Source: a bacterium (GTDB lineage Bacteria > Patescibacteriota > Minisyncoccia > UBA6257 > GWB1-50-10). Taken from it: a DNA stretch of 64,000 nucleotides. Both the position numbers and the translations under genes were made by a program. Location of the stretch: contig JAKAIX010000001.1 of NCBI GenBank assembly GCA_021814165.1, positions 150,787 through 214,786 of the forward strand, given 5' to 3'. This document shows positions 841 through 47,461 of the stretch, piece after piece. The notes beneath the pieces are model-generated. The model did not search any database. It was not told the DNA's origin and was given only the letters and a program-made list of their open reading frames with translations. Position 1 is the first letter of the stretch. The number at the start of each line of letters is the position of its first letter.

Positions 841-2319
841 ATGGAAAGACGAAAAACCGTCCATTTTGTCGGTATTGGCGGCATCGGCATGAGCGCACTT
901 GCGAGGTGGTTTTTAGCCAGAAAATGGGCTGTTTTTGGCTCCGATATAGCGGAGGGTAAAATTACCCTTGACCTCAGAAAACAGGGCTTAAAGGTCAAAA
1001 TAGGCCATAAAAAGGGCAATATAAGACCTAAAACCGACCTTATTATATATAATAATGCCATCCCCAAGGATAACCTTGAGCTCGGGGAGGCAAAGAAAAG
1101 AGGCATTCCTATCTTTTCATTTCCCGAGGCCCTCGGCGAACTTACCAAACACTACGAGACCTTCGCCGTTGCCGGGGCTCACGGAAAAAGTACGACGACC
1201 TCCCTTCTCTCTCTGGTACTCCTCAAAGCGCGATGGGATCCGACGGTAATCGTCGGAACGAAGCTTAAGGAGTTCACCCCGCCTGCCGATGGCTCGAATT
1301 TCAGAATGGGAAAGAGTTATTATTTGGTGCTCGAGGCGGACGAATGGAAGGCGGCGTTTTTGAACTACTCCCCTACTTACGCGATTATTACAAATATAGA
1401 CAAAGAGCACCTGGACTTCTACAAGAACTTCTCGAATATCAAAAAAACATTCCTGAAATTCATCGGAAACGTAAAACCGAAGGGCTTGCTCGTCGTGAAT
1501 CGCGACAACAAGGATCTCTATGCGCTCCGTGCGCAAATCTCAAAAATCACAAAAGCGCATCACGTGAAGGTGATCTGGTACTCGATCGAGCAATCTTCTC
1601 CTTCTCTTGTGGCGAAACTGAAGAACAACCTCTCGGTTTCCGGGACGCACAACCTCTCGAACGCACTTGCGGTTTACACGCTTGCGCGTCATTTTAACAT
1701 CAACGAGAAACTCATTCTTTCCGCGCTGAAAAGCTACCACGGCGCCTGGCGCCGCTTCGAATACCGCGGACAACTGAAAATCGGGAATAAGGAATTAGGA
1801 ATAAGGAATAGGAGATTGGGAACGCGGCGGGACGACACCATGATTCTTAATTCCAAATTCCTAATTCCCGTCTACGATGACTACGCCCATCACCCAACGG
1901 AGATCGCGGCTACGCTTCAGGCATTCAGGGAAAAATTTCCGAAATCCCATATTATTTGCATATTCCAACCCCACCAGGCGAAACGTCTTAAGCTGCTTTT
2001 CAAGGAATTCACGCAGGCATTCAAGAGCGCGGACACGTTGGTACTCCTCCCCGTATACAAAGTCGCGGGCCGCGATAAAATAAACCCTCGCTATGATTCC
2101 CGCGCCCTCGCGAAAAAGATCGAAAACTCGATATACCTGGGCAATCCTAGTAAGTTGTCAAAAGTGATTCGTAGAGTCGTTGTTAAAAATTTCAAATTAA
2201 AAATTTCTGCCCAAGGCGGATCCGCCTCTGGCGGAAAAAACTATGTGCTCGTCATGATGGGTGCGGGAACGATCGTCGAGGAAACGGATAAATTACTAAA
2301 AATGTCAAAATCCAAATGA
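841..2319 (+). CDS. murC: UDP-N-acetylmuramate--L-alanine ligase
   Basis: VHFVGIGGIGMSALA, GAHGKSTTTSLL and DDYAHHPTEI motifs. GAGGA RBS lies 6 nt upstream of ATG 841. TGA stop with conserved C-terminus. Confidence 0.9.
   Translation: MERRKTVHFVGIGGIGMSALARWFLARKWAVFGSDIAEGKITLDLRKQGLKVKIGHKKGNIRPKTDLIIYNNAIPKDNLELGEAKKRGIPIFSFPEALGELTKHYETFAVAGAHGKSTTTSLLSLVLLKARWDPTVIVGTKLKEFTPPADGSNFRMGKSYYLVLEADEWKAAFLNYSPTYAIITNIDKEHLDFYKNFSNIKKTFLKFIGNVKPKGLLVVNRDNKDLYALRAQISKITKAHHVKVIWYSIEQSSPSLVAKLKNNLSVSGTHNLSNALAVYTLARHFNINEKLILSALKSYHGAWRRFEYRGQLKIGNKELGIRNRRLGTRRDDTMILNSKFLIPVYDDYAHHPTEIAATLQAFREKFPKSHIICIFQPHQAKRLKLLFKEFTQAFKSADTLVLLPVYKVAGRDKINPRYDSRALAKKIENSIYLGNPSKLSKVIRRVVVKNFKLKISAQGGSASGGKNYVLVMMGAGTIVEETDKLLKMSKSK
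1783..1876. repeat. AT-rich palindromic element inside murC, in-frame (GGAATAAGGAATTAGGAATAAGG ... ATTCTTAATTCCAAATTCCTAATTCCC)
   Basis: GGAATTAGGAAT and its reverse complement ATTCCTAATTCC flank a ~35-bp core. It encodes about 17 extra residues (LKIGNKELGIRNRRLGTRRDDTMILNSKFLIP) between the RRFE and DDYAHHPTE motifs compared with typical MurC spacing. Confidence 0.55.
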
Positions 2320-3746: not shown

Positions 3747-4258
3747 GATCTATTCCTTCTGAAGTTTTTAATAGCTTGCTAGGTTAAACTAATTGCATCC
3801 TAACGCCCACGCGAAGAGGAGTCAATCCTTCATAAAACAAAGTGACGTCCCGTAAGGAAACGTCATTGTTAATAAATAAAAGTGGTGGCTTGGAGAGAAG
3901 ATGAACATCTCCTCCTTATTGCCTTGATTCAGAACCAGCCAATTCGAATTAAGGCAACTTGGTCCCAAAGCTTACTCCTATTTCCTTTCGGAACCCTTTT
4001 TTTCGCTGCATAGTCCGTGAAGGGAAGTAATTCGGAGAAAGATTATCCCGTAGGCATTCCCCGGATTTTTAGCCACCGAACCTCCACAGACCCTGCCTTG
4101 TGTCCCCTCTCTTAAGAAAACAAGGCAGAGTCAGCGGAAATTCTTTATTTCAAGTTGCTATGACGTTGTACTCCTTTTCTCTTACAATCGTCAAGCTTAA
4201 ACCGAATCCCCGAACCAGCCTCAAAATTTATGCATATGCATAAATTTTGAGGCTGCTG

Positions 4259-8159: not shown

Positions 8160-9050
8160 ATGGAAAATTTTCTGACTCCCAATTCAAAATTCGTGTTTTT
8201 CGGTACGCCTCGTTTCGCGGAGATTGTCTTGGAAAAACTCATCCAAGGAGAGATGCCACCCGCGCTCGTCGTCACGAACCCCGATCGCCCCGTGGGAAGA
8301 AAACAGATTATTACCCCGCCTCCCGTGAAACAGAGAATCATGAATTATGAATCAGGAATTAGGGAAAAAATCAAAATTCTGCAACCGGAAAAATTGGACC
8401 CTTCTTTATTCCCAATTCCCAATTCCCAATTCGACTTCGCCATTCTTGCTTCCTACGGGAAGATAATTCCGAAGGAAATCATCGAGCTCTTTCCCAAGGG
8501 AATTATCGTTGTACACGGTTCTCTTCTTCCAAAATACCGAGGCGCGACGCCAATCCAGACCGCGCTCTTGAACGGCGACCTGACAACCGGCATTACGCTT
8601 CTCCTTATGGACGAAAAGGTAGATCACGGGGAGATACTCTCGAGCTCCGAACTGCAAATCCTTCCCGATGATACCTATACTTCTCTCATCGAAAAACTTG
8701 CCAACATAAGTGCGGAGCTGCTCTTGAAAACAATTCCGAAATATCTCGCGGGAAAGATTATTCCACGGGAACAAAATCACGCGGAAGCGACGTTCACAAA
8801 AAAATTCAGAACAGAGGACGGATTCTTGCCTTGGAACCATCTTAAGGAGGCGGAAGAACAAGGCGGAGAGAAAGCGGCGACAATCGACCGAATGATACGG
8901 GCGCTGAATCCGGATCCGGGAGTGTATACGCTGAAGGAAGAGAAAAGAATAAAACTCCTCGAAGCGAAACTTGAGAACGGGAAATTACAACTTGTGAAGA
9001 TCCAAGAGGAAGGGAAGAAACCAAAAATTATCGAGGCCCGGCCTCGATAA
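8160..9050 (+). CDS. fmt: Methionyl-tRNA formyltransferase
   Basis: FFGTPRFAE, VVTNPDRPVGRK and HGSLLPKYRGATPIQ motifs. The start overlaps the def stop. The ORF-track N-terminal extension (from 7935) is not used. Confidence 0.9.
   Translation: MENFLTPNSKFVFFGTPRFAEIVLEKLIQGEMPPALVVTNPDRPVGRKQIITPPPVKQRIMNYESGIREKIKILQPEKLDPSLFPIPNSQFDFAILASYGKIIPKEIIELFPKGIIVVHGSLLPKYRGATPIQTALLNGDLTTGITLLLMDEKVDHGEILSSSELQILPDDTYTSLIEKLANISAELLLKTIPKYLAGKIIPREQNHAEATFTKKFRTEDGFLPWNHLKEAEEQGGEKAATIDRMIRALNPDPGVYTLKEEKRIKLLEAKLENGKLQLVKIQEEGKKPKIIEARPR
8408..8432. repeat. Tandem (CAATTCCC)x3 inside fmt coding sequence; related GAATTATGAATCAGGAATTAGGG lies at 8342-8364
   Basis: Read directly; it encodes FPIPNSQF. 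Confidence 0.6.
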
Positions 9051-14947: not shown

Positions 14948-16273
14948 ATGAAGAACATTCTGACCTTGCGAAGGGTGGAACGGGTCATAGAAGACACCGC
15001 GAAGAAATTCGTTATTGATGGCCTTGAGTTTGAAGATCTCGTCCAAATAGGGAGAATTGCGGTTTGGAATTTGCTGAAAAAGTACGACATCAATGAAACG
15101 AACGTAGCTGAACACACGGGGATTATCAGAAACAGCGTAAAATATGCGCTCCTGAACGAACGCACAAAATCCAAAGCGAAGAAAAGAATCGAACTCACAA
15201 AAGCGATTTCACTGGACGAGGGAATCGATGAAGAGGACGGCGACGAGAGAACATTACAGAATTTCATCGCATCGGACGAAGAAAATGGGATTGATATCCT
15301 TGAGAAACATGAAAACGATGTAGAACGTCTCAAATTTCTCGTTCGCAACTCGTTTGCTGAAAAAACCGTGAAAAGCAAACGTGCGGTGATATTCTTCCTC
15401 GTAAAAATGTTGGGATTGAGCGAACCCGAGATTCCTAAGAGGATAAAATACGAAACATTCCTCAAACTAAGAATTTCAAGATGGCTCTGGGTATTTTTCA
15501 ACAACTCCCCTTTCAGAGCCCTTAATCTCGCCTATCCTGGAAAATTCCTCCCATATGAAATGAGCCGAATCCCCAAAAAACAATGGGACGGACTGCGAGG
15601 GAAAAAGAGAGCAATAAAGGCCCTGAAACTTGCTTTGGAAAAAACCGGATACGCGCCGGAACACTTTCCAAAACTCCTGAACTATCATTTCTTCGAGGAG
15701 TTCAGGCTCGTTACCCCTCTCAAAAACATCTTCGAGTACGACAGATTCTCTTACCTGAATGCGACATTCCCTTCCCGGTATCATGCGTGGGATCTATCCT
15801 TCACGCAAAGAGGTTTTTTTGATTCGCTGGATCACCTGAAAGATGCGACAAAATGGCTTGTCAGAAAGAAGCTCGGTTATGATATTGACGGCCTTAGCGT
15901 CCACGAGATATGGGAGAAAAAGATCGCACTCAAGATTGGGAAGGAAGATTTCTGCCAAAACGGATTGCGTGGAGTTATGGCGGTCTACGGATCACCGGAA
16001 CCCGTTTTGAGACTTACCTATCCGGGAAAATTCCTGCCGTGGAGCTTTCAACGAAGAGACAAGTGGTACGGAAGAAGCGGAAAAGCGCTTGCCGCACTTG
16101 CAACTCGCTGGGTAGTTGAAAGATATGCAAAGATCTCTCCCTTGTCGCCCAAGATAACGTTCTACTTCTTTGTACAAAACGGTCTGCACGGTATGATTAC
16201 GGCAAGGAGTCTTGGTTTCAATTCTTCTCCAAAAAAAGCGATGCGGAATGCCTATCCGGGACTATTTCACTAA
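14948..16273 (+). CDS. ECF/sigma-70-family-like protein with C-terminal triple YPGKFLP(W/Y) repeat domain
   Basis: EDLVQIGRIAVWNLLKKYD...GIIRNSVKYALLNE resembles sigma region 2. KRAVIFFLVKMLGLSEPEIPKRIKYETFLKLR is region-4-like. Three repeats follow: ALNLAYPGKFLPYEMSRIP, VLRLTYPGKFLPWSFQRRD and AMRNAYPGLFH. AAGGA RBS precedes the ATG. Confidence 0.55.
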   Translation: MKNILTLRRVERVIEDTAKKFVIDGLEFEDLVQIGRIAVWNLLKKYDINETNVAEHTGIIRNSVKYALLNERTKSKAKKRIELTKAISLDEGIDEEDGDERTLQNFIASDEENGIDILEKHENDVERLKFLVRNSFAEKTVKSKRAVIFFLVKMLGLSEPEIPKRIKYETFLKLRISRWLWVFFNNSPFRALNLAYPGKFLPYEMSRIPKKQWDGLRGKKRAIKALKLALEKTGYAPEHFPKLLNYHFFEEFRLVTPLKNIFEYDRFSYLNATFPSRYHAWDLSFTQRGFFDSLDHLKDATKWLVRKKLGYDIDGLSVHEIWEKKIALKIGKEDFCQNGLRGVMAVYGSPEPVLRLTYPGKFLPWSFQRRDKWYGRSGKALAALATRWVVERYAKISPLSPKITFYFFVQNGLHGMITARSLGFNSSPKKAMRNAYPGLFH

Positions 16274-23442: not shown

Positions 23443-24669
23443 CTACGGGAGAAACTCCGCTTTTCTTACTTTTTTGTGATAGGTAATTGCAAAGCGGTGC
23501 GCCTCGTCGCGAACGCGGACGAGTGTCGTTTCATCCGCGAACCCAGGAATGCGACCAATGATGTCATTCTTTTTTCGTGTAGGCCCTTTTGCAATTCCCA
23601 CGACGGGAATACTGAGCCCCGCCGCCTTCAGCACGTCTCTTGCGACACGTACCTGCCCTACTCCTCCGTCTATCAAAATAAGATCAGGCTTCGGCCAGTT
23701 TTCTTCTCCCGTATGTCTAAAACGGCGCGAGAGCATTTCTTTGAGCATCCCCACATCGTTCGGCTTCTTGAGCGTTCGAATCCTAAACTTCCTGTACCAC
23801 CGCTTCGACGGTTTCCCATTCTCGAATACTACCATTGCGCCAACAGCAGATGCTCCTGAAATATTTGAAATATCAAATCCTTCAATTCGCGTTCCATAAT
23901 TCTTAATTCCTGACTCATAATTCCCAATCTCATTCTCTTTTACGAGTGCTACGTCTTGAATGTGTTGTAATGCAAGAATGCGCCGCCTGATCTTCTCCGC
24001 CTTCTCAAACTCAAGCTTCTTGCTCGCTTCCCGCATCTCCCGCTCGAAATTTTTCATAATCTTCTCTCTTTTCCCCTCGAGAAGAAGTTTAAGATCCCTT
24101 ATTGTTTTTAAATACTCCTCTCTTCCCTCGACGGCAACGCAGAATCCCGGACAAAGACCTATCTGCGCATCGAAACACGGTTTTCCTTTTCCTATCTCTT
24201 TCATCGAATGTACGCTCCACGGAAATATCTTTCTTAAAATACGGAGTGCCTCGCGGATACTCGAAGGAGAAGTGAAAGGACCGTGAATAGCGCTGTATCG
24301 GGTACCAGCATCTCGTTGTTTCAAATCCTTTCCCCTTATCAAAAGCACTCTCGGGAATCGCTCCTTCGTGATGACGACATACGGGAAACTCTTGTCGTCC
24401 TTCTCGCGGATGTTGAACGGCGGCTGGTGTTTTTTTATAAGATCCGCCTCGAGAATGAGCGCTTCGATTGCCGTGGCCGTTTTACGCACTTCTATCTTCC
24501 GGATTTCTTTCACTAACTTCTCAATGCGGGAATCGTGCGGGCGTAAAAAATAACTCGAAACGCGGCGTTTCAAGTTCACGGCTTTTCCCACATACAAGAT
24601 GCTCCCCTTCGCGCCTTTCATAAGATAGACGCCGGGAGTTTCGGGAAGGTTCCTATAGAGTGTCATCAA
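23443..24669 (-). CDS. uvrC: Excinuclease ABC subunit C (short form, 408 aa)
   Basis: GIY-YIG N-terminus (PGVYLMKGAKGSILYVGKAVNLKRRVSSYF) and central RIEGFDISNISGASAVG endonuclease region. No C-terminal HhH extension. Confidence 0.85.
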   Translation of the reverse strand: MMTLYRNLPETPGVYLMKGAKGSILYVGKAVNLKRRVSSYFLRPHDSRIEKLVKEIRKIEVRKTATAIEALILEADLIKKHQPPFNIREKDDKSFPYVVITKERFPRVLLIRGKDLKQRDAGTRYSAIHGPFTSPSSIREALRILRKIFPWSVHSMKEIGKGKPCFDAQIGLCPGFCVAVEGREEYLKTIRDLKLLLEGKREKIMKNFEREMREASKKLEFEKAEKIRRRILALQHIQDVALVKENEIGNYESGIKNYGTRIEGFDISNISGASAVGAMVVFENGKPSKRWYRKFRIRTLKKPNDVGMLKEMLSRRFRHTGEENWPKPDLILIDGGVGQVRVARDVLKAAGLSIPVVGIAKGPTRKKNDIIGRIPGFADETTLVRVRDEAHRFAITYHKKVRKAEFLP

Positions 24670-25578: not shown

Positions 25579-28101
25579 CTATCTTAGAGCTTTCTTTAAA
25601 TACTGCCCCGTGAAACTTCCCGCCCTCTTCGAAATGTCCTCGGGAGTGCCGGTTGCGACAATCTCTCCCCCCTTCTCCCCTCCCTCGGGTCCCAGATCAA
25701 TCACCCAGTCGGCCGTCTTTATCACATCCAGATTGTGCTCGATAACAACCACCGTATTTCCCCTGTCCACGAGCCGTTGGAGCACGTCGATCAAATTCTG
25801 CACATCCGCGAAGTGAAGTCCGGTCGTCGGTTCGTCCAAGAGATAAAGCGTGCGGTGCGTGTCTCGCTTCCCGAGCTCCGCGCCGAGCTTCACGCGCTGC
25901 GCCTCACCGCCCGAAAGCGTCGTTGCTGACTGCCCGAGTTTGAGATACCCGAGCCCCACTTCGTTCAAAATTTTCAAACGATCGTAGAGCCACGGAATGT
26001 CTTCGTAAAATTCCGTCGCCTCCTCGATCGTCATTTTTAAAACTTCATACACGTTTTTCCCTTTATAACGTACGTTCAGTGTTTCTCTATCGAATCGTTT
26101 TCCCTTGCATACCTCGCATTCGACGTAGACCGTCGGAAGGAAATGCATCTCGATCGCGATCATCCCGTGCCCTTCGCAGTTTTCGCATCTGCCTCCTTTC
26201 ACATTAAAACTGAAACGACCCGGTTTGTAGCCACGGACGCGCGCGTCTTCCGTCGCCGCAAAAAGTTCGCGGATAAAGGTCCATGCGCCTACGTACGTTG
26301 CGGGGTTCGACCGCGGCGTGCGTCCGATCGGCGACTGGTCGATATTGATAATGCGGTTGATGTATTCGGTGCCCGTAATCGCTTTATGCGGCCCCGCTTT
26401 GTAATCCGCGCCATTAAACTTGTTCGCGAGCGTCTTATAAAGCACGTCATAAAGAAGCGTGCTTTTTCCGGATCCCGAAACGCCCGTAATTGCGGTAAAG
26501 CGCTTCAAGGGGATATCCACATCCACGTTCTTCAGATTATTTGCCGTAATCCCTTTTATCTTCAGATGTTCTTTATCTTTGCTCACGATTCGCCTTTTCT
26601 TCGGAACCTCGATAAATCGCTTGCCGCGGAGATATTCCAGCGTAAGCGAATCCTGCTTCATGTCTTTGATAATGGAAGGTATCGGACCCTGTGCAATGAT
26701 TTTTCCCCCGTGGACTCCCGCGGCGGGACCGATATCGACGAGATAATCGGATGAACGAATAGTGTCTTCGTCGTGCTCGACGACAATAATGGTATTCCCG
26801 AGATCGCGGAGATCCTGAAGCGTTTTGATGAGCTTCGCATTGTCGCGCTGATGGAGCCCTATTGTCGGTTCGTCCAGGATATAAAGCGTTCCCACGAGAC
26901 GCGAGCCGATCTGGGACGCAAGACGGATGCGCTGGGACTCGCCTCCCGAGAGCGTACCGGCCTTCCTGTTAAGCGTGAGATAGTCGAGTCCTACGTCGAT
27001 CATAAATTGCAGACGGCTTTTGATTTCCTTTAAGGGGACCTCGGCGATTTCCGCGAGATTTTTTTTCTTTGCGAGTTTTTCCCCAACTTTCGTGAAAAAC
27101 GCGAACGCGTCGTCGATCGAGAGTTCAACAACCGAGGCTATGTTCTTGTTGTCGATTAAGACATTCAAACTTTCTTCCTTGAGACGCTTTCCCGCGCACG
27201 CGGGGCAGATCTTCTCGGACCAGATACTTTCAGTGCCAAGCCCATGGCACTCGGGACACGCGCCGTAGGGACTATTAAACGAGAAGAGCCGCGGCTCGAT
27301 TTCGGGAAACGAAAACCCGTCCTCGGGACAGGTGTACTGTGCCGAAAGCGATACTTCCTTGTCGGTGATGACGGTAATCACGTCGTGGCCGTATTTCAGG
27401 GCCGTCTCGACCGACTCCGCAAGCCGCATTCTGTTATCTTTCTCGTTGAAATCGATTCCCGCGGGCATTCGATCAACCACGAGATCGATCGTGTGTTGTT
27501 TATAGCGGCTCAAATCGATCCGTTCGCGCAAGCTCGTGAACTTGCCGTCGACCCGCACCTCCGAGAATCCGGAATTCAGAAAATCATAGAGCATTTGATA
27601 GTACTCTCCCTTTCTGCCGCGCACGACGGGAGCAAGAATCACCACGTTCCTTCTGTCTTTGTTTTCTCCCGAAATATCGATAATAACGTCCACGATTTCC
27701 TCGTTCGTCATTTTTCGTATCTCTCTTCCGCACTTGGGACAGAACGGCTTTCCCGCGCGCGCAAAAAGCACGCGGAGATAGTCATAAATCTCCGTAATGG
27801 TCGCGACGGTCGAGCGCGGATTCGCCGAGTGATGCTTTTGATCGATCGAGATTGCGGGCGACAATCCTTCGATTTCATCAACATCCGGCTTATCCAATCT
27901 CCCCAAGAACTGGCGCGCATAGGCGGAGAGCGACTCGATATAGCGCCGCTGTCCTTCCGCAAAAATGGTATCGAACGCCAAGGATGATTTTCCCGAACCC
28001 GAGAGACCGGTAAAGACGATCATCTTATCTCGCGGGAGTTCGAGATTGACGTTTTTGAGATTATGCTCGCGGGCACCTTTTATGATTATCTTGTCTCTCA
28101 T
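25579..28101 (-). CDS. uvrA: Excinuclease ABC subunit A (840 aa)
   Basis: Two ABC cassettes ([12 protein letters not shown]; [11 protein letters not shown]), zinc fingers and LSGGEAQR signature. Confidence 0.9.
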
Positions 28102-28104
28102 GTC

Positions 28105-28245
28105 CCTAAAACTCTAAACTCTAATTTCTAAATCCTAAATAATGACCAAAATACGAAATCATAATGACTGAAACGCGTGTTTTGTTATTTTGAATTTGGG
28201 ACATTTGAATTTATTTAGAGTTTAGGGTTTTGTGTTTAGAATTTC
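28105..28245. repeat. AT-rich imperfect palindrome built from CTAAA / TTTAG iterations
   Basis: AAACTCTAAACTCTAATTTCTAAATCCTAAATAA ... TTATTTAGAGTTTAGGGTTTTGTGTTTAGAATTT. Sits immediately upstream of the uvrA start. Confidence 0.5.
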
Positions 28246-28344
28246 GTTTGTATACGCAAACACTCCCCCGTTTCGGTTCACTGGGGGGTGAGTATAAGAG
28301 AAAGATACTCCTCGCTTCTTGTGAGGTCAAGATTGTTTGATTCG

Positions 28345-39612: not shown

Positions 39613-39723
39613 GTCGTCATTTTATCGTTAATCGCACATTCTTGGAAGCGGTTACGGAAGAGTTTGATTTCTTCGAATCGGACCACAATCGGATTATCGA
39701 ACTAAATGAAGCCGCCTCAAAAT

Positions 39724-39759
39724 ACGCTCATATGCGCGTATTTTGAGGCTGTCATCTTC
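39724..39759. terminator. Palindrome GCCTCAAAATACGCTCATATGCGCGTATTTTGAGGC (related copy at 4216-4255)
   Basis: Read directly; lies 3' of the carboxypeptidase gene. Confidence 0.5.
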
Positions 39760-46371: not shown

Positions 46372-46788
46372 TTAAATTATCTTTTTTAATTCGACAAGTA
46401 CCTCCTGTGGTATTGGGTCACGTACAGGGGCCTTTCCTGGGTATCTCCACACCGTAATGATCTTTATCGCTTTTTGCTTGTTCTGTCTCGTTTTGTTATT
46501 TTGCATTCGAAATTTGGAAATTGCTCGTGCCGCAGGCGCGAGTTTGTACATCACCCAGATTTCCGAATATCGCTTGGTGCCCGCGGGCTGCATCACGGCA
46601 ACCGTGCGCGGCGCAATCCCCTCCTCATAACGCGTGGGAAACCGGATGATTCGCTTCACGCGGCTCTCCGCAAGCCCGTAATACTTCATCTTCACGCGCG
46701 CGTGGATGGTCCAAATAAACTTTTCAGCCGAAGGAGAAGGAAACATAGAACGAGAATTTCCAATTTTCAATGACCAATGATCAATCAA
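46372..46788 (-). CDS. Hypothetical protein
   Basis: 138-aa ORF with no motif recognised. Confidence 0.3.
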   Translation of the reverse strand: MIDHWSLKIGNSRSMFPSPSAEKFIWTIHARVKMKYYGLAESRVKRIIRFPTRYEEGIAPRTVAVMQPAGTKRYSEIWVMYKLAPAARAISKFRMQNNKTRQNKQKAIKIITVWRYPGKAPVRDPIPQEVLVELKKII

Positions 46789-46855
46789 TTTTAGAACTAC
46801 AAAATTTTAAAATTGTGAAATTAACTGGAAATTGATAATTGAAAATTTAGTATCT
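46745..46855. repeat. AT-rich palindromic block (AATTTTCAATGACCAATGATCAATCAATTTT ... AAATTGATAATTGAAAATTT)
   Basis: Read directly; intergenic between two minus-strand genes. Confidence 0.45.
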
Positions 46856-47411: not shown

Positions 47412-47461
47412 AGTCGCGTATCCTATATACTATATACTTAATACTATATACTAATAACCGT

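Follow-up and report, generated by a model that had tools for sequence, protein, structure and literature searches.

How does an essential enzyme come to carry, in the middle of its reading frame, an AT-rich palindrome built of short repeats? The question is raised by murC, the gene for UDP-N-acetylmuramate--L-alanine ligase, in a 64,000-nucleotide stretch of a Patescibacteria genome (contig JAKAIX010000001.1, positions 150,787 to 214,786 of the forward strand; hereafter the window, which is also the 64 kb over which the source genome itself was analyzed). A preliminary description of this DNA had compared the palindrome with the Rickettsia palindromic elements and had pointed to related motifs in fmt and uvrC. 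The reading that we favor, and rate slightly better than even, is instead that the segment at 1782-1870 is a heptanucleotide "foldback" repeat which evolves in place within a permissive loop, where it is translated, tolerated and filtered for frame and stop codons. The murC features on which the argument turns are the following.

841..2319 (start at 829 or 841), plus strand: murC, the host gene, with a translation of 492 aa
1782..1812, plus strand: left heptad array, GGAATAA GGAATTA GGAATAA GGAATAG, detected by Tandem Repeats Finder (TRF; period 7, 5.6 copies), by a periodicity scan and as an inverted-repeat arm
1813..1842, plus strand: inter-arm loop, GAGATTGGGAACGCGGCGGGACGACACCATG, richer in GC, encoding RLGTRRDDTM
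1843..1870, plus strand: right heptad array, ATTCTTA ATTCCAA ATTCCTA ATTCCC, detected by TRF (period 7) and as an inverted-repeat arm, encoding ILNSKFLIP

The identity of the gene is supported by homologues with the Pfam families Mur_ligase, Mur_ligase_M and Mur_ligase_C, and by matches to MurC structures in the PDB down to E = 1e-72. Units of the right arm are the reverse complement of those of the left, i.e., (GGAATWA)4 faces (TWATTCC)4. In the best inverted repeat, the arms (1782-1809 and 1843-1870) are 28 nt long, 86% complementary and separated by 33 nt, and the whole element forms an imperfect, in-frame palindrome of 89 bp. The sequence quoted for murC in the preliminary description was found at 1783-1870, and the exact 12-mer and reverse complement that it named are GGAATTAGGAAT at 1791-1802 (plus strand) and its reverse complement at 1857-1868. 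The frame is kept, as had been stated, within 829/841..2319 (plus strand), with the translation LKIGNKELGIRNRRLGTRRDDTMILNSKFLIP; the left array encodes GNKELGIRNR, and the insert peptides readable in the window MurC include ELGIRNR and ILNSKFLIPVYDDYAHHPTEIAATLQAFR. The 12-mer is over-represented, with 20 window matches at up to 2 mismatches against 9.4 ± 3.0 in shuffled sequences, none of 100 shuffles reaching 20. As RNA, the segment folds at -33.7 kcal/mol, compared with -21.6 ± 3.1 in shuffles (z = -4.0), and as DNA at -17 kcal/mol (z = -3.75); it outdoes all 200 dinucleotide shuffles.

The mismatches between the two arms are not placed at random with respect to the reading frame. In the murC frame, a TAG would arise in the first heptad of the left arm if the unit ended in TTA, a TAA in the second if it ended in TAA, and a TAA in the second heptad of the right arm if it ended in CTA. 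Direct reading of flanks and arms revealed that the unit variants present (TAA/TTA/TAA on the left, CAA on the right) are exactly those which avoid stops. The positions of the mismatches are thus explained if only stop-free versions, with a net length that is a multiple of 3 nt, survive in an essential gene. No target-site duplication was found at the hairpin, its flanks (...AAAATC|GGGAAT ... ATTCCC|GTCTAC) being without a direct repeat, and an Rfam 15 scan of the whole window returned three tRNAs only, with nothing at the gathering threshold for the hairpin. An assembly artefact was ruled out, as the identical MurC protein is present on 6 contigs from three sources and the feature recurs in orthologues. 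Likewise, a G-quadruplex reading was discarded: the GGAATWA unit has GG only, and the arrays lack runs of three or more G per unit.

With regard to the protein, an AlphaFold2 model built with 118 homologues (mean predicted local distance difference test score, pLDDT, 91.8; predicted template modelling score, pTM, 0.90) has strands at MurC residues 307-315 and 339-347, which form the base of a β-hairpin, and no assigned secondary structure at residues 316-338. The 10-residue blocks over residues 321-340, in the inter-arm loop region, have mean pLDDT values of 54-59, the lowest in the model. Because strands are modelled at the base and confidence is low at the tip, the insert is predicted to be a partly ordered extension of the native β-hairpin with a flexible end. 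The hairpin links the central domain of MurC to the C-terminal one, and solved PDB structures of MurC have 4-6 residues at the insertion point versus 31 in the window. The surface-loop placement that had been anticipated is therefore borne out at the level of the model, but the estimate of about 17 extra residues was too low, the excess being about 25-27 relative to the shortest orthologues and the solved structures.

Heptad arrays in the loops of MurC, Fmt and UvrC

The DNA of 85 Patescibacteria MurC orthologues was compared over the region from G310 to Y345; the closest MurC homologues are labelled Patescibacteria, Minisyncoccia or Paceibacterota. In an alignment of 25 homologues, length varies between WRRxEyRG and VYDDYAHHP, with several sequences carrying inserts of the ELRIKN...IIHNSKFIIP type and others none. 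Across the 85 orthologues, the region ranges from 27 to 108 nt in a continuum of lengths and units, rather than being simply filled or empty, and in all versions the length is divisible by 3 and no stop occurs. Of the 61 distinct inserts that reach 36 nt, the best DNA period was 7 in 77%, as against 4.8% of control windows taken elsewhere in murC (n = 1216), and 61% of the site windows, but 0/1216 control windows, had a lag-7 match fraction of 0.6 or more. The units themselves are diverse, including AAATTCA, AAATTAC, GGAAATT, AAATTGN, AACTCAT, AAGTCAA, AGAGTCA, AGATGTC, CGCATGT and CCTACCN, among others. The supposition of a lineage-specific insertion does not hold in its simple sense, because most of the 85 orthologues have 7-nt arrays in this loop; what the preliminary description had named as a refutation, orthologues with similar segments, therefore applies in part. 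Units and lengths do vary widely. A rule-based classification of 73 orthologues gave four states of the loop.

Direct heptad array (typically 5 units, 45 nt): 31/73
Hairpin: 13/73
Empty loop, no insert: 14/73
Non-periodic insert: 15/73

Where a hairpin is present, its arms pair in the unit of the lineage concerned, i.e., GTATC/GATAC in locus L147, GGTTT/AAACC in L192 and GCCAT/ATGGC in L137; GAAT/ATTC arms were found in the window, L001, L124-L127 and L163. When the states were mapped on a rough neighbor-joining tree built without the loop site, hairpins, direct arrays and empty loops were interspersed among close relatives. The window and L001 have the hairpin and their neighbor L003 a direct array, and a further set of relatives comprises L124 (hairpin), L130 (direct array), L125 (hairpin) and L131 (empty). 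In L003, whose MurC is 78% identical, only the right arm is present, with all its units changed from ATTCC to ATACT. The window, L001 and L124 have in common a 108-nt insert with homologous loops. In orthologues without an insert, the flanking native codons for GKFK (GGA AAA TTC AAA) already hold the seed of the AAATTCA unit. A mini-intron removed before translation was judged unlikely, since no orthologue has a shifted frame or a stop and the unit variants lie where they avoid stops.

Other parts of MurC also vary. MurC length among close homologues runs from 435 to 641 residues, and further insertion hot spots in Patescibacteria MurC were seen at alignment columns 68-85 and 455-475 (homologues P0006, P0007, P0014 and P0033), the N-terminal insert reading QSLDKLG..TAKG or GGPERSRLGQGPERSRRG and P0033 carrying an 18-residue insert after REKYP. 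Directly upstream of murC, L125 (9349-9864) and L126 (9450-9956) have a LAGLIDADG_1 homing-endonuclease-like open reading frame (ORF); its counterpart in the window, the ORF at 133-627, gave no Pfam match.

Related arrays in the window lie in fmt and uvrC, in frame, as the preliminary description had noted.

8335..8364, plus strand: fmt left heptad array, GAATCAT GAATTAT GAATCAG GAATTAG (TRF period 7), encoding RIMNYESGIR
8365..8404, plus strand: native Fmt core between the arrays, EKIKILQPEKLDPS, not inserted, aligning to the PVLQP/PVFQP segment of solved Fmt structures
8405..8433, plus strand: fmt right heptad array, TTATTCC CAATTCC CAATTCC CAATTCG (TRF period 7, 3.6 copies, 100% matches), encoding LFPIPNSQF
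23896..23930, minus strand: uvrC direct heptad array, TTGGGAA TTATGAG TCAGGAA TTAAGAA TTATGGA, encoding IGNYESGIKNYG

The quoted sequences were recovered at 8342-8364 in fmt and 23898-23928 in uvrC, and the peptides NYESGIREK (Fmt) and NYESGIKNY (UvrC) do share NYESGI. The tandem reported in fmt exists as well, although not as an 8-mer: it is (ATTCCCA)x3.6, with period 7. In fmt, the two arrays are convergent around a core (8365..8404, ILQPEKL) which is conserved in orthologues without arrays; the right array fills a segment of normal length, the net gain relative to PDB Fmt is 4-6 residues, and the DNA fold is not significant (z = -1.3). Many Patescibacteria Fmt proteins (54-77% identity) read RIMNYESGIR.KIKILQPEKLDPSLFIIPNS, others VLAQKHGIPVLQPE..NFKFEIRNSKFDF, and further lineages have other heptads at both places, such as (CTGAAAC)3...(GGTTTCA)4 in L163 and CAATTTY in L152. 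In uvrC, the array sits in a variable linker before RIEGFDISN; the linker has an ordinary length, the segment shows neither palindrome nor hairpin fold, and orthologues have other heptad-derived linker peptides there, e.g., IGNWKLEIGN and IKNFKLKIKN. A single inserted palindromic element cannot explain either of these cases. The window uvrC (23443-24669, minus strand) belongs to a short form: like all 120 closest homologues, its product has only about 380-446 residues, with precomputed Pfam domains PF27096, PF02151, PF01541 and PF08459. Judging from length alone, this product may lack the C-terminal helix-hairpin-helix domain found in canonical UvrC, which has about 600 residues.

Conservation of the repeat as DNA and its distribution

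In order to separate the DNA repeat from the peptide that it encodes, each insert of 21 orthologues was recoded 300 times with synonymous codons. The 7-nt periodicity exceeded all 300 recodings in 20/21 orthologues. Hairpin stability was modestly above that of the recodings, with z = -2.1 in the window (8/300) and a range from +0.2 to -3.2 among orthologues, several lying between 0 and -1. As this effect is modest and not significant in many orthologues, a selected RNA hairpin is not claimed. The comparison of the window with L001 gave the following identities.

Whole murC gene: 75% at the nucleotide level, third positions 56%
Left arm: 77%, third positions 8/11
Inter-arm loop: 57%, the least conserved part, third positions 6/10
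Right arm: 93%, third positions 9/9

The comparison was extended to the eight orthologues with GAAT-type hairpins, for which pairwise counts share phylogeny and are not independent. At identical residues, the third base was identical in 45% of cases in the gene (3393/7499), 79% in the right arm (159/202) and 66% in the left arm (63/96). The ATTC cores of the right arm showed no variation (100% conserved) across the four units and the eight sequences, whatever their codon position, and per-base conservation in this arm tracked the heptad register (R2 = 0.48) and hardly codon position (R2 = 0.04). In fmt, the third base at identical residues of the left arm was kept in 9/10 and 9/9 cases, versus about 45% gene-wide. 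From the recoding, third-base and register results, the repeat, namely its 7-nt periodicity and its GAAT/ATTC cores, is maintained as DNA, with the peptide as passenger.

The arrays are part of a wider class. Within the window, tandem period 7 alone is enriched, with 6 arrays versus 0.15 in dinucleotide shuffles, periods 5, 6 and 8-11 being at background. Convergent pairs occur in murC (1782-1812/1843-1870), in fmt (8335-8364/8405-8433) and in intergenic DNA (28103-28250). Beyond the three genes, the window contains these arrays and palindromes.

28103..28250, no strand assigned: intergenic heptad-armed hairpin, (CTCTAAA)n ... (TTTAGAG)n, found by TRF and as an inverted repeat, DNA fold z = -3.3
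46762..46847, no strand assigned: weaker intergenic foldback, AATGACC/AATGATC ... AATTGAT/AATTGAA, with 43-nt arms, 72% complementary and roughly 7-nt periodic
47418..47453, no strand assigned: intergenic direct array (TATACTA)x5 between divergent genes, found by TRF (period 7, 5 copies) and by the periodicity scan
2204..2237, plus strand: second in-frame murC palindrome, GGCGGATCCGCCTCTGGCGGA, an inverted repeat encoding AQGGSASGGK, pLDDT 67-70

The hairpin at 28103..28250 lies directly upstream of the start of uvrA (25579..28101, minus strand, UvrA Pfam match), in a promoter or 5' leader position. The foldback at 46762..46847, between two minus-strand genes, has no significant fold (z = -1.6), and the TATACTA unit is similar to the ATACTWA repeated in the MurC loop of L003.

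A count over 0.92 Mb of non-duplicate Patescibacteria loci, a sample selected by way of murC and hence biased in its coding fraction, gave 181 period-7 arrays, 85 of them (47%) inside long ORFs. Since about 69% of this sequence satisfies the same long-ORF criterion, the arrays of the sample may be in mild intergenic excess. Genomes with a MurC array had 2.4 times more arrays elsewhere (1.5 vs 0.64 per 10 kb, p = 0.015-0.03). The idea that one templated unit serves a whole genome was ruled out, because arrays within one genome locus differ in unit. A unit common to murC and fmt was nevertheless seen in some genomes, i.e., WWGTCAR in L139 (murC 8925-8946, fmt about 15880-15965), CAATTTY in L152 and GGAATTA in the window, which hints at copying or a shared constraint between loci.

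A scan of one genome per bacterial species for (GAATNNN)3 followed 20-50 nt downstream by (ATTCNNN)3, with the GAAT core thus imposed, returned at least 120 stretches. Each match examined was a heptad-armed hairpin, some with a GC-rich inner stem-loop. The matches listed came from Acidobacteriota, Bacteroidota, Verrucomicrobiota, Lentisphaerae, Planctomycetota, Chloroflexota, Gemmatimonadota, Xanthomonadales, Elusimicrobia and Saccharibacteria, among others, and among those listed outside the window 11/126 lay in long ORFs, the hairpins being mostly intergenic. In L042 (715-973), from a metagenome-assembled genome of Lentisphaeria, the heptad foldback is itself tandemly amplified, with three head-to-tail copies of an ~85-bp hairpin unit composed of (GAATGCT)4 ... 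(CATAATT)n and then a GC-rich spacer. Among viral contigs, the heptad hairpin had 2 matches and the GC-rich palindrome described next also 2, with no sign of phage origin.

The palindrome at 2204-2237 coincides with the second insertion hot spot of MurC (alignment columns 560-590), where other orthologues have heptad arrays (VIHNSKFIIHNS), and with the second low-confidence patch of the AlphaFold2 model (residues 451-470, matching GGSASGG). Its consensus is (TCYGCCCAAG)GCGGATCCGCCTCTGGCGGA(AAA), giving the in-frame peptide GGSASGG(K) in MurC. A 21-mer of it also occurs in at least 7 other Patescibacteria loci; copies include L003 (11402), L137 (14634-14663), L151 (5904), L173 (1721-1750), L207 (11842-11871) and L210 (585), and in L173 the copy lies within the heptad array that occupies the first MurC site. 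Related peptides were found in Fmt and UvrC homologues, and intergenic copies in many Patescibacteria genomes. Because its nucleotide sequence is conserved between genomes, this GC-rich palindrome is a better candidate for a genuine dispersed element than the heptad arrays are. Two further palindromes with zero spacer, at 4216-4255 and 39714-39749 (20-nt arms 100% complementary in one, 18-nt arms 94% in the other), have in common the arm core GCCTCAAAAT...ATTTTGAGGC and may be another dispersed family or bidirectional terminators.

Probable evolution in place and competing explanations

How, then, could such a segment arise? It consists of two tandem arrays that face each other across about 30 nt, both built of a 7-nt unit with a GAAT core and both in frame in the MurC β-hairpin. 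Under the reading that we favor, the segment would be transcribed and translated, with the bases of the arrays lengthening the native β-hairpin and the enzyme tolerating a flexible tip of roughly 23 residues. The murC hairpin would be one case of a class of heptad arrays found throughout the genome, some direct and some in convergent pairs, which in this Patescibacteria lineage lie in intergenic DNA and in variable loops and linkers of housekeeping proteins (two sites in MurC, Fmt and UvrC). Slipped-strand gain and loss of 7-nt units would change the arrays in place, inverted duplication by template switching would yield facing arms, and deletion of an arm would leave a single array. In an essential gene, the survivors would be only those versions that are stop-free and have a net length divisible by 3.

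Several observations weigh against this reading, at least in its simplest form. The GAAT/ATTC cores are invariant across MurC divergence down to about 55-63% identity, which is hard to reconcile with neutral slippage, and concerted evolution alone is insufficient because the spacers within an array are not homogenized. The nucleotide identity of the fmt left arm is 93-97% to orthologues with an identity of 61-62% over the gene, the 20-mer GAATTATGAATCAGGAATTA is near-identical in fmt and uvrC, with one base different, and unit sharing at up to one mismatch is 19% within genomes versus 12% between them (permutation p = 0.0005), L139 and L152 using one unit in both murC and fmt. The fmt-arm identity, the 20-mer and the unit sharing allow for copying between loci or for selection on the motif. 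Candidates for the maintenance of the cores are hairpin pairing, a heptad-binding factor or biased homogenization; the 7-nt step has no mechanism that explains it; and the GAAT-type hairpins scattered over the tree could be ancestral or repeatedly acquired.

A broader proposal, which we regard as tentative and somewhat doubtful, is that a heptad-specific process or factor acting on DNA writes and maintains convergent 7-nt arrays in many phyla; in Patescibacteria, where intergenic space is scarce, these arrays would have colonized the variable loops of essential enzymes. The agent would be a protein recognizing short cores at a spacing of 7 nt, or a step of replication or repair that advances by 7 nt.

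A different explanation, unlikely in our judgement but the strongest of the rivals to evolution in place, is that the arrays are functional cis-elements at the nucleic acid level, either hairpins or cruciforms, or 7-bp sites for a protein that binds convergent arrays; they would lie in genes only because small genomes offer little intergenic space, and the protein would merely tolerate them. This accords with conservation that follows heptad register and not codon position, with invariant cores, with synonymous sites conserved at 66-79% in the arms versus 45% in the gene, and with the identity of the fmt left arm (93-97% as against 61-62% for the gene). It also accords with the recurrence of facing arrays, at distances of 30-90 nt, both around the native core of fmt and between genes, and with the heptad-hairpin architecture in many phyla, including the convergent pairs described in Xanthomonas (PMC4692102). 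However, the units at the MurC site are wholly different between lineages and the site is empty in 14/73 orthologues, close relatives included; because of this unit turnover and these empty orthologues, no single conserved function is needed there. Moreover, hairpin stability is only modestly above that of recodings (window z = -2.1), the fmt fold is not significant and uvrC has none, no Rfam family matched in the window, and no candidate for the binding protein was identified.

We consider it improbable that the segment is a miniature mobile palindromic element of the Rickettsia palindromic element type or of the miniature inverted-repeat transposable element (MITE) type, with terminal inverted repeats built of heptads and in-frame insertion in loops. 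Its appeal lies in the palindromic, in-frame, loop-located murC segment, the presence of the motif in three unrelated genes (with the fmt/uvrC 20-mer at one mismatch), the elevated sharing of units within genomes, the patchy distribution at the MurC site and the sequence-conserved GC-rich palindrome, which occurs in coding and intergenic DNA and, in L173, inside the heptad array of the MurC site. Against it, murC, fmt and uvrC share only GAATTAN heptads, with unrelated inter-arm sequences and no further consensus; the fmt "loop" is native ILQPEKL protein sequence; uvrC has a single direct array without a palindrome; murC lacks a target-site duplication; and no transposase was found among the 10 window ORFs scanned against Pfam. 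In addition, hairpins at the MurC site of other lineages are built of entirely different units, which requires either evolution in place or a different element for each lineage.

Least probable of all is selection on the protein for a longer amphipathic MurC β-hairpin serving a lineage-specific interaction, with the DNA repeat as a by-product: a heptad array does yield a 7-residue peptide repeat (e.g., KFKIQNS KFKI) whose alternation would fit a β-hairpin with a two-residue turn, AlphaFold2 extends the native strands into the arm bases and the loop is occupied in most orthologues, but the peptide is extremely variable in sequence and length and lost in close relatives, the DNA periodicity goes far beyond the need of any peptide (0/300 recodings), conservation is independent of codon position, the tip is of low model confidence, and the same repeats occur in intergenic DNA.

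Relation to known repeats and significance for Patescibacteria

According to the summary of Ogata et al. 2000 given in PMC10969869, Rickettsia palindromic elements are about 150 bp long, number dozens of copies per genome and are grouped in families marked by a conserved consensus and peptide. The likeness drawn in the preliminary description stands in so far as an in-frame, stop-free palindrome lies in a loop of a housekeeping gene and is translated as an extra peptide, the positions in unrelated housekeeping genes being compatible with the fold. The ability to form a hairpin is shared by murC alone, with fmt at z = -1.3 and uvrC unfolded. As a discrete inserted element, however, the segment fails on consensus, boundaries and target-site duplication. 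It differs in its 89 bp and 7-nt tandem arms, in copies that are alike in the heptad only, without a family consensus or peptide, in the native inter-arm sequence of fmt, in units that differ by lineage at the orthologous site, and in its host, a Patescibacterium.

The closest precedents are heptamer repeats. In Xanthomonas, GGGAATC heptamers form convergent paired sites in 70-75 cases among roughly 185 repeats (Rehm et al. 2015, PMC4692102), and Nostoc has GGGGAYT heptamers; the repeats of both are mostly non-coding, under-represented in genes and read as G-quadruplex formers (PMC4692102). In common with them, the window arrays consist of dispersed tandem 7-nt units, with a GAAT-containing unit and convergent array pairs able to form a stem-loop, and our genome scan also matched Xanthomonadales examples of the same convergent pattern. 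They differ in lying in frame in essential genes, in having GG only and no G3 tracts, in occupying the same loops across the sampled Patescibacteria MurC, Fmt and UvrC, and in conservation that tracks the register. The architecture is thus known from Xanthomonas and Nostoc; what is new is its in-frame presence in essential genes, its recurrence in the same loops and its register-tracking conservation.

Repetitive heptanucleotides of cyanobacteria are also known from Calothrix PCC 7601, as cited in PMC4692102, and TAACTGA repeats from Beggiatoaceae, cyanobacteria and Bacteroidetes (MacGregor 2015, PMC4679880). TAACTGA arrays lie mostly directly upstream of start codons and have stops in all frames on one strand; in reverse orientation they occasionally form part of an ORF, which then encodes a peptide repeat of 7 residues, the coding cases being at protein termini or in hypothetical proteins, and a single indirect (inverted) repeat was found (PMC4679880). 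The window arrays resemble the Calothrix and TAACTGA repeats in a lineage-wide excess of direct 7-nt arrays whose origin is unexplained. Unlike TAACTGA arrays, they lie in conserved internal loops of essential enzymes.

Protein-bound heptads offer another comparison. The ribbon-helix-helix protein omega of inc18 plasmids binds contiguous 7-bp operator and centromere arrays, direct or inverted, with the unit WATCACW. The window arrays are similar, by description, in their contiguous 7-bp units, but they are chromosomal and partly coding, with units that vary, in contrast to the promoter and centromere arrays of the plasmids. Repetitive extragenic palindromic (REP) sequences, their hairpin-forming doublets (REPIN) and MITEs are likewise short, dispersed, hairpin-forming repeats; in the window, by contrast, the arms are simple-sequence repeats, with no conserved palindrome consensus among the hairpins and no GTAG-type head, and the murC hairpin lacks the target-site duplication of a MITE. 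The literature searched contained no paper that connects Patescibacteria or Parcubacteria with heptamer or tandem repeats or with in-frame palindromes, and none that places such repeats in internal loops of essential enzymes.

The surplus of heptanucleotide repeats in bacteria, already remarked on in 2007 according to PMC4692102, is still unexplained. Arrays in alignable essential genes give a clean handle on it, because there codon position can be separated from heptad register, and register-bound conservation, as seen in the eight GAAT-type MurC orthologues, makes the question "why 7?" testable in terms of a binding factor, a hairpin or biased repair. The arrays further indicate that unstable foldback repeats can persist for a long time in essential enzymes. 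Loops of low complexity that are read in frame, such as ELRIKN, IHNSKF or GGSASGG in proteins from metagenome-assembled genomes, can be DNA repeats and not protein features, which matters for annotation, alignment and phylogenomics of Patescibacteria. These observations also suggest a concrete mutational source for protein length variation in the group. If a heptad-writing process does exist, the arrays would be a major undescribed source of the protein insertions typical of the Patescibacteria radiation, and the same loops, two in MurC and those of Fmt and UvrC, would have been remodelled repeatedly.

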